64,000 nt of DNA from a virus: the IMG/VR virus record IMGVR_UViG_3300034198_017445, positions 1 through 64,000 of that record; one strand, given 5' to 3'. Made by a program: the position numbers and the translations under genes. Shown in pieces: positions 58,103 through 59,685 of the stretch. Each line of letters opens with the position of its first letter. The stretch's first letter is position 1. The notes beneath the pieces are model-generated. The model was not told the origin of the DNA, searched no databases, and saw nothing but the letters and a program-made list of their open reading frames with translations.

Positions 58103-59685
58103 TCCTGCTCATGGGAGTTGTTCATGAGATAATGATCTGGAATATGCTAATGCCTATCAATCGGCTTTGTTGCTTGAAGACGAACTATGTGGCTGATCGG
58201 TGCCATCGTTACCGAAAATATGGGTCTGTTGCGTTATCGCCAATCGCGAGGCTTTGTTTCGCTGATATCGATGCAGTTCACCGCCTGCTCGGAGGCTTTG
58301 TTTTCGAGATACAACGACGTGGTTGCTTTTGATTTTATGCCTGCTAGGTGGCATCGTTACATTGGCTCGAACTTGAATTTCATTCATTGCGTGCGATGGG
58401 GCATCATTCCATTGACATACCCGTAAGCCTGCTCGGAGGCGTTATATCGGAGACAAAAAGCATACGGGGAGACTATTTGGACTGCGATTGATTTGCCTGT
58501 CGTGAGGCGTCGTATCGCGAAAACGAGATTGATCACATGATTCCGCCTGCGGACCGGCTTCGTTGGTCCGGCGCAAGGACATCGTTGCCTGCTCAGAGGC
58601 ATTGTGTCTGAGACGTTCGCGAGAACTTCGATCTGTCGCCTGCCATGAGGCTTTGTGTCATGGACGGAGTCCATAATGCCCGAAAGTGAAACCAAAAACA
58701 TACCGATCAGCTCGGTCACAAATGCTCTGTGGGAGTGCCGTGATTGCGGCTGCGAGTCGAGCGATGTGTACTGGTTCAGTTGTTTGGGTGCGAGGCTCAA
58801 GAAGCCGAGGTGCGCGTGCTGCCATGAGAAGGCGGTCGTCTCTGGTTCGTCTGTTTACGAAGAAGGGACTATTGAAATGTCTGGTTGCCAGCAACGGGTG
58901 TACGGTAGGCATGTTCGGGGAATCTACTTGTTTCGGGAGGAGAAGTAACTTGCTTGTGCCTGTTCGGAGGCATCGTATCCGTGACGACCACTGTTTTACC
59001 CGCCTGCGCTGGGGCGTCGTTTCGGTGAGTGTGACTACACAATCTCCTGCGCGGTGGAGTTGTAACCGTGGCCAGATTAGCGATTTTGCTTTAAGCCTGC
59101 ATGGAGGCATCGTATCTATGACCCCATTGTGCCGTGTTCATTGCCTGCTCGGAGGCGTCGTATCCGAGATGAAACATTTGCTATCTCGTTTTCATTGCCT
59201 ACCGTGAGGCGTTGTTTCATGGATCCGACCATAGCTTCCGGCGTGGCTTTGTAGCGTCGATGGCCTGATTGCGTGCGCCTGCTTGGAGGCTTTGTTTCCT
59301 TGGCTCAATACGATCAGTGAGAATTTTGCCTGCTCAGTGGCGTTGTAACTGCGATCCAGGATTTGGTTGGCGTATCGCCTGCTTGGAGGCTTCGTTTCCT
59401 GAACATGATGCATCGCTGCTCAGTGCCTGCTCAGCGGCTTTGTTGCTGGGATGAAAAGTCACTTTGCCATCTATCGCCTGCGGACCGGCGTGGCTGGTTC
59501 GACGTCAGCCATTTTTTGTAATCGTCACGAAACTGTTTCATGACGGTTTTGTCCTGCGCATCGGACTTGTTGGTGCGACAACGCGGAAAATGTGGAAAGT
59601 ATTGATGGTGCTCGGATGAAATTGGAATCGTCACGAAACTATTCTGTGACGTGTTTTGCCTGCTCGGAGGCTTTGTATCCGTGAC
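58103..59685 (+). CRISPR. Degenerate, structure-conserved array of 26 28-nt repeats with very short spacers, interrupted by a small ORF
   Basis: Repeat starts: 58103, 58152, 58191, 58239, 58283, 58339, 58389, 58427, 58495, 58545, 58587, 58638, 58958, 59002, 59045, 59095, 59143, 59197, 59234, 59277, 59328, 59377, 59425, 59476, 59552, 59658. Consensus GCC-TG-CTCGGA-GGC-(T/G/A)T(T/C)GT-W-TCCGAG-A(C/T). Confidence 0.88.
58676..58948 (+). CDS. Small Cys-rich (Zn-binding) protein embedded in the array
   Basis: GGAG directly after repeat 12; CRDCGC...CACCH; fills the 292-nt gap between repeats 12 and 13. Confidence 0.55.
   Translation: MPESETKNIPISSVTNALWECRDCGCESSDVYWFSCLGARLKKPRCACCHEKAVVSGSSVYEEGTIEMSGCQQRVYGRHVRGIYLFREEK

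Follow-up and report, generated by a model that had tools for sequence, protein, structure and literature searches.

Two features define a CRISPR array, identical repeats and uniform spacers, and software that searches for arrays depends on both. We examined a phage locus in which a cas12m-like gene is followed by a long series of 28-nt handles that vary in sequence and are separated by short, uneven gaps. The locus raises the question of whether such an arrangement is a CRISPR array and, if so, whether its guides still work. The window analyzed here comprises bases 1-64,000 of a 74,334-bp IMG/VR virus record that is rated complete. Features of the locus, in window coordinates, are collected in Table 1.

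Table 1. Features of the two handle arrays and the associated cas12m gene
Feature	Position	Strand	Evidence	Details
cas12m homolog (582 aa, P0001)	56344..58092	+	Profile match to Cas12m structures; Pfam TNB domain	
Array A, first part, 12 handle units of 28 nt each	58103..58665	+	Covariance model, structure counts	Unit starts 58103, 58152, 58191, 58239, 58283, 58339, 58389, 58427, 58495, 58545, 58587, 58638; gaps 21, 11, 20, 16, 28, 22, 10, 40, 22, 14, 23 nt
90-aa Cys-rich ORF	58676..58948	+	ORF list, sequence	Fills a 292-nt gap
Array A, second part, 14 handle units	58958..59685	+	Covariance model	Unit starts 58958, 59002, 59045, 59095, 59143, 59197, 59234, 59277, 59328, 59377, 59425, 59476, 59552, 59658; gaps 16, 15, 22, 20, 26, 9, 15, 23, 21, 20, 23, 48, 78 nt
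Terminator-like hairpin and T run	59490..59518	+		Extends from the 3' part of unit 59476 into the start of the 48-nt gap
Hairpin of CGTCAC...GTGACG type, then TTTTG	59520..59551	+	Repeat family D6; fold -10 kcal/mol	Copy 1 of 2, inside the 48-nt gap
Hairpin of the same CGTCAC...GTGACG type, then GTTTT	59629..59657	+	Repeat and fold	Copy 2 of 2, inside the 78-nt gap
Array B, 7 handle units	40375..40677	+	Covariance model	Gaps 15, 22, 15, 20, 14, 21 nt

Results

A Cas12m-type effector with an altered RuvC site

A profile of 26 homologs (P0001 and 25 others) was compared with the PDB. It matched the Cas12m structure 23vw_A with an E value of 1.1e-129 and the Cas12m2 structure 8hio_A with an E value of 2.6e-72, and the alignments cover nearly the whole length (approximately residues 17-572 and 19-592 of the two PDB chains, respectively). 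The TNB domain that Pfam recognizes in P0001 is Cas12f1-like. The cas12m gene is intact and conserved, its closest relatives being P0002 (66% identity) and P0003 (64%); queries of viral contigs with P0001, P0002 and P0004 gave no match. P0001 aligns through the N-terminal helical REC region, the PAM-distal read-out region, which in GoCas12m stretches the heteroduplex read-out to 18 bp (PMC11013384).

The RuvC-I residue of P0001 is His (VAIHVGWR), as in Cas12m2, and the RuvC-II Glu column holds Ala, with an Asp three residues further on (VAPID). The RuvC-III Asp is invariant, and the zinc finger is retained. Distant homologs hold D and E at the RuvC-I and RuvC-II columns; therefore, these residues were lost in the clade to which P0001 belongs. 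Type V-M effectors have either a canonical (D-E-D) RuvC site or a binding-only one of the H-D-D or N-D-D kind. Judging from its sequence, P0001 is a Cas12m-type effector with a non-canonical RuvC site, and from the replaced residues we infer that the phage protein has probably lost cleavage.

Thirty-three handle units in two arrays

A covariance model made from the handle units identified 33 of them in the 74-kb genome, grouped in two clusters and exclusively on the + strand; the same search of both strands revealed no further unit, nothing else scoring better than an E value of 0.4. Together the units amount to about 2.6% of the 74-kb genome. Array A contains 26 units, all on the + strand over positions 58103-59685, and begins 10 nt past the cas12m stop codon. 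It is interrupted once, by the 90-aa Cys-rich ORF, which starts 10 nt past unit 58638, stops 9 nt ahead of unit 58958 and matched no Pfam family. Array B lies 16 kb from cas12m between two + strand ORFs, and its last unit (40650) ends 31 nt ahead of an ATG at position 40709. Thirty of the 33 units precede another unit rather than a gene.

Tandem Repeats Finder detected nothing at either array, to which it is blind because the units vary in both sequence and spacing, and an Rfam search matched no family. Neither Cas1 (PF01867) nor Cas2 (PF09827) was matched in the 74-kb record, in searches whose controls did give matches. The first-pass annotation of this DNA had described the guides as old and fixed; since the phage carries no Cas1 or Cas2, they are indeed fixed, not freshly acquired.

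A conserved handle fold with divergent sequence

All 33 units are distinct, with a mean column identity of 73%. Each can nevertheless be drawn as the same structure, in which a 6-bp helix (positions 6-11 with 21-26) is combined with a 3-bp pseudoknot (positions 1-3 with 12-14, in the loop), with G5 and A27 retained across the handles as a G/A pair. This structure is paired in 93.9% of cells, as against 68.6% in shuffles, and none of 500 shuffles did as well; when the structure was slid along the units as a control, only 35-45% of cells were paired. Cells changed on both sides numbered 73, compared with 20.5 in shuffles (again 0 of 500 as good), and such two-sided changes occur at eight of the nine handle pairs. 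Two stem mismatches each are found in units 40511, 58339, 59277 and 59377. G-U pairs are frequent, and therefore the RNA would be made from the + strand, which matches the strand of cas12m.

The Cas12m2 scaffold determined previously contains a G(-23):A(-2) pair and a helix of positions -22 to -17 with -8 to -3, stacked coaxially on a short stem, and its guide begins right after position -1 (PMC10442227). The phage handle follows the same plan, the sole difference being a loop that is longer by one nucleotide. Judged by fold and covariation, the handles are genuine Cas12m (type V-M) crRNA scaffolds.

Gap lengths and the space left for guides

All 25 gaps that had been reported between the 28-nt handles of array A were reproduced from the unit starts. 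With array B there are 31 gaps, and they fall into classes: three of 9-11 nt, eight of 14-16 nt, 14 of 20-23 nt, two of 26-28 nt, three of 40, 48 and 78 nt, and the 292-nt gap occupied by the ORF. None measures 12-13, 17-19 or 24-25 nt. One copy of a single terminator-like hairpin is present in the 48-nt gap and another in the 78-nt gap.

It had been proposed that similar motifs at the ends of several gaps are the eroded 5' part of an ancestral repeat of about 36 nt. The motifs are present (GTGTTCATT before unit 59143, GTTTTCATT before 59197, CATTCATT before 58389, GCGTTATC before 58239 and GCGTATC before 59377). Across all 33 units, positional information is approximately zero as far as position -6 and reaches 0.22-0.44 bits at positions -5 to -1, which are T-rich and G-poor. 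A matrix derived from the corresponding 8-mers of relatives scored the gap ends above random genome 8-mers (58 of 5,000 did as well), but in comparison with composition-matched shuffles the figure was only 414 of 5,000. Clear relics of the 5' repeat part are confined to a handful of units, such as GATACAAT before 40650 and CATTCATT before 58389. The proposal is therefore right in kind, given the 36-nt repeats of relatives described below and these relics, but weakly supported in extent, with about 5 nt constrained and not 8.

Subtracting about 5 nt from each gap leaves 15-18 nt in the main class, 9-11 nt in eight gaps and 4-6 nt in three. Given the tight packing of the handles, the guides can be only about 5-23 nt long at most. 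Cas12m2 forms a 17-bp heteroduplex by way of a 12-bp intermediate state (PMC10442227), and GoCas12m reads 18 bp (PMC11013384). About half of the phage guides fit the 17-18 bases that the family reads, whereas about one third are shorter than the 12-bp intermediate R-loop of Cas12m2. The first-pass annotation had regarded the guides as seed-only; this description suits the sub-length third but not the main class (14 of 31 gaps), in which the 15-18 nt left correspond to the family's read length of 17-18 bp. For guides of 9-11 nt, TldR repressors provide a precedent (10.1101/2023.11.30.569447), whereas Cas12m offers none. Handles that precede short gaps scored a mean of 30.7 bits in the covariance model, as against 33.1 bits for those that precede gaps of 20-23 nt.

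A gradient of array forms among relatives

The same model also found canonical arrays located directly after cas12m homologs in metagenomic and viral contigs. Their 36-nt repeats are identical and recur at a period of 72-74 nt, which leaves spacers of about 36-37 nt. Each repeat consists of the 28-nt core and an 8-nt 5' part, for example GTTGCAAT, GAATCAAT, GTAACAAT or CCGACAAC, of the type ...CAAT or ...CAAC. IMG/VR was also scanned for pairs of cores only 18-40 nt apart, which yielded 35 loci.

Several of the relatives are regular in one part only. In loci L086, L089 and L100, a regular part is followed by cores that differ from one another but still fold, with gaps of 20-36 nt. Two of these loci, L086 and L089, include cas12m, and there the gene-proximal part is the regular one and the distal part is heterogeneous and short-spaced. 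Loci L099 and L082 are heterogeneous almost throughout. The 8-nt 5' part can still be read in these heterogeneous stretches, and therefore the real spacers there measure 8-20 nt. Occasional short spacers also occur in otherwise perfect arrays (17, 17, 18, 18, 18, 20 and 20 nt, and one of 13 nt), which we take as a lower limit for young arrays. The old short spacers of L086, L089 and L099 are lower in G+C than the young ones (0.42-0.57 versus 0.58-0.67). Other arrangements include a single handle after cas12m (L034-36), three handles in the cas12m leader (L038) and orphan handles with no cas12m nearby (L062).

The cas-distal end of the relatives' arrays is presumably the oldest. Compared in this way, the arrays in the window look like the end state of the relatives' gradient, in which acquisition would have ceased and every unit would be old.

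Search for targets

The first-pass annotation had reported no convincing self-target, and this was borne out: the longest self match that begins at the seed extends over 11 nt, a length expected by chance. After masking of the arrays, exact matches of 9-13 nt from the seed onward were as numerous in the phage genome as those of shuffled seeds. In 1.7 Mb of related phage DNA, no excess of seed matches was found at 12 nt or longer (one at 12 nt, versus 2.2 in shuffles, and none at 13 nt), and matches over 16 nt with at most two mismatches numbered 11, versus 6.8 +/- 2.6 in shuffles, with no shared PAM. A mild excess at 10-11 nt in the same DNA (20 matches at 11 nt, versus 9.0 +/- 3.8 in mononucleotide shuffles) had no common PAM and was gone at 12-13 nt; we read it as shared oligonucleotide usage. 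One candidate from this search, the guide of unit 58587, agrees with the cas12m gene of L034-36 at 17 of 21 positions, including a seed of 11 nt. Its flank, TGT, differs from a T/C-rich PAM, and a match of this kind can arise by chance among 20 seed matches; we rejected it.

One cas12m relative is located on a contig of a Pirellulaceae MAG, which provides a hint, at the level of the family, to a candidate host. Array A was compared by BLAST with 301 genomes of this family: the best per-genome E value was 7.7e-4, no guide recurred, and the matches were scattered, 18-25 nt long and mostly to handle or ORF sequence rich in G+C. When the first 20 kb of the phage were searched against the same 301 genomes, only distant similarity at the level of genes (67-89% identity) and no spacer-like match emerged. 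The handle model, applied to 151 genomes of the family, produced two single matches, one of which is a host CRISPR spacer in a different array and not a V-M repeat. Matches of 15 nt are below what a genome search separates from chance, and for an exact 16-mer in a collection of the size of IMG/VR about 50 chance matches are expected.

The guide parts contain 46% G+C, compared with 53% for the genome, and downstream sequences show no relationship in the clearly related handle pairs 40559/58152, 40601/58638 and 58545/59476. This composition, the unrelated follow-on sequence and the absence of targets are what would be expected of guides under relaxed constraint, although the three together are not decisive.

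The earlier proposal that the guides are aimed at host promoters, defense genes or rival elements gained nothing from these shuffle-controlled tests, which were negative, and no result supports the selection by which the guides were said to have been trimmed. It had also been suggested that target enrichment be tested over shuffled spacers, its absence, together with that of conserved spacer 5' ends and of guide-dependent ChIP peaks, favoring a decaying array or a decoy RNA. There was no enrichment in the phage genome or in the 1.7 Mb of related phage DNA, and no recurrent guide in the 301 candidate-family genomes. By that reasoning the negative tests lean toward decay or decoy, although the genomes searched were those of a candidate host family and guides so short are nearly undetectable.

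Discussion

Relationship to known systems

The closest counterparts are the type V-M systems of Cas12m2 of Mycolicibacterium mucogenicum, GoCas12m and MsCas12m (PMC10442227, PMC11013384). The phage locus shares with them an effector that is homologous, equal in size and non-canonical at its RuvC site, with His at RuvC-I, a pseudoknot handle of about 29 nt with a G:A pair and the guide 3' of the handle, an array directly after the gene, no need for a tracrRNA, and the absence of adaptation genes. Unlike theirs, the phage repeats are non-identical (73% column identity), with structure kept by compensatory change; nearly all of the 5' 8 nt of the 36-nt repeat have been lost; the spacers are variable and measure about 5-23 nt instead of about 36 nt; and the array holds a protein gene and terminator-like hairpins, with a second, orphan array elsewhere. 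The phage system is a derivative of type V-M, in that its effector and handles agree with the family's definitions, whereas its array does not have the identical repeats and uniform spacers of about 30-40 nt that define one.

Several other systems resemble the locus in part. Cas12r-CRISPR of the Thermus Lalka phages is likewise a phage-borne, TnpB-like type V effector followed by short degenerate repeats without adaptation genes; its mature guide is 18 nt and one 6-nt spacer relic has been reported (10.64898/2026.04.20.719267). However, Cas12r belongs to a different effector family with an active RuvC, the segment derived from its repeat is reported to form the 3' part of the crRNA, and its native spacers are 31-33 nt, most with identifiable targets in host integrative elements (10.64898/2026.04.20.719267). 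TldR proteins are nuclease-dead members of the TnpB/Cas12 lineage, often phage-borne, that repress promoters through fixed guides, some of 9-11 nt (10.1101/2023.11.30.569447). They have one omega-RNA-like scaffold of about 100 nt, which overlaps the gene's 3' end, and one guide per gene, whereas the phage has 28-nt handles in arrays of 26 and 7, and their targets adjoin the locus or sit in a conserved host promoter, whereas none was found for the phage guides in the phage genome or the 301 candidate-family genomes. Regulatory mini-arrays and crRNA-like RNAs (CreR, CreA and scaRNA) also combine degenerate repeats with spacers, which act by partial, seed-proximal pairing without cleavage (10.1101/2023.03.03.530964), but these comprise one to three units with a spacer that matches a promoter in or near the cas locus, as opposed to 33 units with no self match above chance. 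RNA anti-CRISPRs and the TIGR arrays of phages are phage-borne repeat-derived RNAs as well, the latter also with very short spacers (PMC11656645, PMC12045711). The former mimic host repeats and come without a cognate effector, whereas this phage encodes the cognate effector beside the array; TIGR arrays belong to the unrelated Tas proteins.

Phage-borne V-M loci have barely been described. A 2026 preprint presents a myxophage Cas12m with a regular array as the first in a phage, with no protospacers found (10.64898/2026.09.14.751636), and our literature search turned up no paper on a compacted Cas12m array conserved in structure only.

A compacted array with guides that may still work

The reading that we place first, at about even confidence, is that the locus is a fossil, compacted type V-M CRISPR array that still supplies working guides, at least from the gaps of 20-28 nt. 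According to this model, cas12m and the 26 units downstream of it would be transcribed from the + strand, and the seven units of array B would be transcribed separately. Each 28-nt pseudoknot handle would be gripped by Cas12m and the transcript cut in the short T-rich stretch ahead of every handle, which would give crRNAs of about 40-50 nt, each consisting of a handle and the tail that follows it. Through its non-canonical RuvC site, the effector would bind and silence PAM-flanked DNA matched by those guides that still have a target, and would not cut it. Without adaptation genes, growth of the array by acquisition would have ended. The identical repeats would then have diverged, leaving variants that preserve the structure and that would also be less prone to recombinational loss, and the parts dispensable to Cas12m would have been deleted, namely the eight disordered nucleotides at the repeat's 5' end and, in each spacer, the half distal to the PAM. 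Guides of 15-18 nt, the largest class, would suffice for a full R-loop, while those of 9-11 nt and 4-6 nt would be weak binders at best and are probably on the way out.

A functional array could also be imagined in a stronger form, as hard-wired multiplexed silencing: some 30 fixed guides of 12-18 nt, carried on sequence-unique but structure-conserved handles, would direct a binding-only Cas12m to repress host genes or rivals, the spacers having been trimmed to the read length and the repeats driven apart by recombinational loss and by host CRISPR spacers that target repeats. We consider this possible but doubtful. Rather doubtful, too, is a senescent array, in which the handles would still be made and bound by Cas12m while the spacers have drifted or shrunk beyond use and have no specific targets; the handles would persist through weak selection, for example on RNA stability or effector loading, or simply because only structure-preserving, recombination-resistant variants survive. 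Such an array would agree with what we count against function, that is, the failure to find a target above shuffled controls in any space searched, the drift of the guide parts toward A+T, as in the relatives' old spacers, and spacers as short as 4-6 nt. The short heterogeneous units at the cas-distal, presumably oldest, end of the relatives' arrays also point this way, as do the two stem mismatches already seen in each of four units. What we count for function is harder to reconcile with senescence. Thirty-three units are kept at two places in a small genome, of which they occupy about 2.6%; compensatory change is far above shuffles, a result that would be difficult to reach unless selection had continued to act on each unit; the effector gene has remained intact and conserved; and the gap lengths are not smeared but form non-random classes whose mode equals the effector's read length, with handles before short gaps nearly as good as the others.

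The visible selection on handles and not on spacers would also be expected of decoys, in which the units would act as a sponge similar to an RNA anti-CRISPR and soak up the Cas12m of rival plasmids, prophages or the host, leaving the spacer free to shrink. V-M systems typically reside on plasmids and prophages, where they serve in conflicts between mobile elements, and single repeat units are known as RNA anti-CRISPRs in phages (PMC11656645); both array B and L062 contain orphan handles with no cas12m close by. We regard this explanation as improbable, since the main array begins immediately behind an intact cas12m of the phage itself, arranged as in the working V-M loci of relatives, the handle model gave only those two single matches in the 151 candidate-host-family genomes, one of them a host CRISPR spacer, and the contacts of Cas12m with the stem are mostly to the backbone (PMC10442227), which makes stem diversity unnecessary for mimicry. 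More improbable still would be a role in cis, with Cas12m binding or cutting handles in phage transcripts and thereby separating or tuning neighboring mRNAs, such as those of the internal ORF and of the genes after the arrays. Units 58638 and 40650 do end shortly (10 and 31 nt) ahead of an ATG, and L038 has three handles in its cas12m leader; however, what comes after 30 of the 33 units is another unit and not a gene, a run of 26 sites is unnecessary for the processing of one transcript, and the leader of the phage's own cas12m contains no handle.

Implications

The Cas12m arrays of this phage and several others keep the RNA fold alone, at a unit pitch of about 43-50 nt, and such tightly packed arrays are therefore overlooked by standard array tools. 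If the guides of the compacted array work, a natural CRISPR array can last for a long time without new spacers, and guides can shrink to the footprint of the effector. Engineers deliberately design non-repetitive handles to obtain stable multiplex arrays; working guides would mean that such handles also arise naturally. If the guides are dead, the locus offers a rare view of an array that ages while its handles stay under selection. Either way, these arrays provide a natural series of guide lengths, from about 5 to 23 nt, with which to ask how short a Cas12m guide can be.

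Gap lengths and guide sequences

Across all 31 gaps between neighbouring 28-nt handles (the Cas12m crRNA scaffolds) in the window, lengths form classes of 9-11, 14-16, 20-23 and 26-28 nt, spaced by about 5-6 nt; none of the 31 measures 12-13, 17-19 or 24-25 nt. The short gaps of other phages include lengths of 17 and 19 nt, indicating that the class pattern is specific to this phage. On the guide side, A occupies gap position +4 after 18 of the 33 units (0.40 bits), and no signal was seen at any other position. Given that 28 columns were tested, this preference may be due to chance.

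The guide following the unit at 58587 (58615-58635) matches L034:3634-3654 at 17 of 21 positions, with an 11-nt seed. This stretch lies in the cas12m gene of three related loci (L034-L036), and the window phage's own cas12m differs there. No T/C-rich PAM adjoins the match, which is within chance expectation and is kept as a lead only.

Elements within array A

Around the start of the 90-aa open reading frame inside array A, the sequence is CATAATGCC (58666-58680), which has the same shape as the repeat junction of relatives (...CAAT|GCC...). In the phage contig L086, this same 15-mer with one change is a true repeat junction. The ATG of the reading frame may derive from a decayed unit. At the other end of the array, terminator-like elements are interspersed among the last three units (59490-59657), so that these tail units may be expressed differently from the rest.

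Terminator-like elements of the array A tail and repeated-spacer units of L086
Feature	Position	Location
Hairpin and T run	59490-59518	Window, array A tail
CGTCAC...GTGACG hairpin, then T-rich tail, copy 1 of two	59520-59551	Window, array A tail
CGTCAC...GTGACG hairpin, then T-rich tail, copy 2 of two	59629-59657	Window, array A tail
L086 repeated-spacer units	3708 and 3853 (reverse-complement coordinates)	Minus strand

Handles and arrays in relatives and candidate hosts

Several other layouts were found. At L034:3969-4004, L035 and L036, a single handle follows a cas12m homologue (54% identical) and is succeeded by ordinary genes. At L038:9811-9946, three handles separated by 15 and 37 nt lie in the cas12m leader, and the gene has a regular downstream array as well. 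A contig from a candidate host family genome (L062:850-1527; G286:C74) carries three handles, all in the same orientation, and a gap of 17 nt separates two of these; no cas12m lies within 1.5 kb. This orphan mini-array resembles array B, the seven-unit array of the window's phage. In each of two phages (L075:960-1105 and L086), a single array contains the same spacer in two copies, which indicates that these arrays change by unit duplication as well as by acquisition and loss.

A chromosomal CRISPR array in another genome of the candidate host family (L101:1497-1534; G062:C1, near 763817-763854) has a 36-nt repeat unlike the Cas12m handle. One of its spacers consists of the handle plus 4 nt of the handle's 5' flank, and is identical to the repeat of L086 at 31 of 32 positions, indicating that hosts target the phages' own repeats. 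Such targeting could place pressure on the repeats to diverge while their fold is kept.
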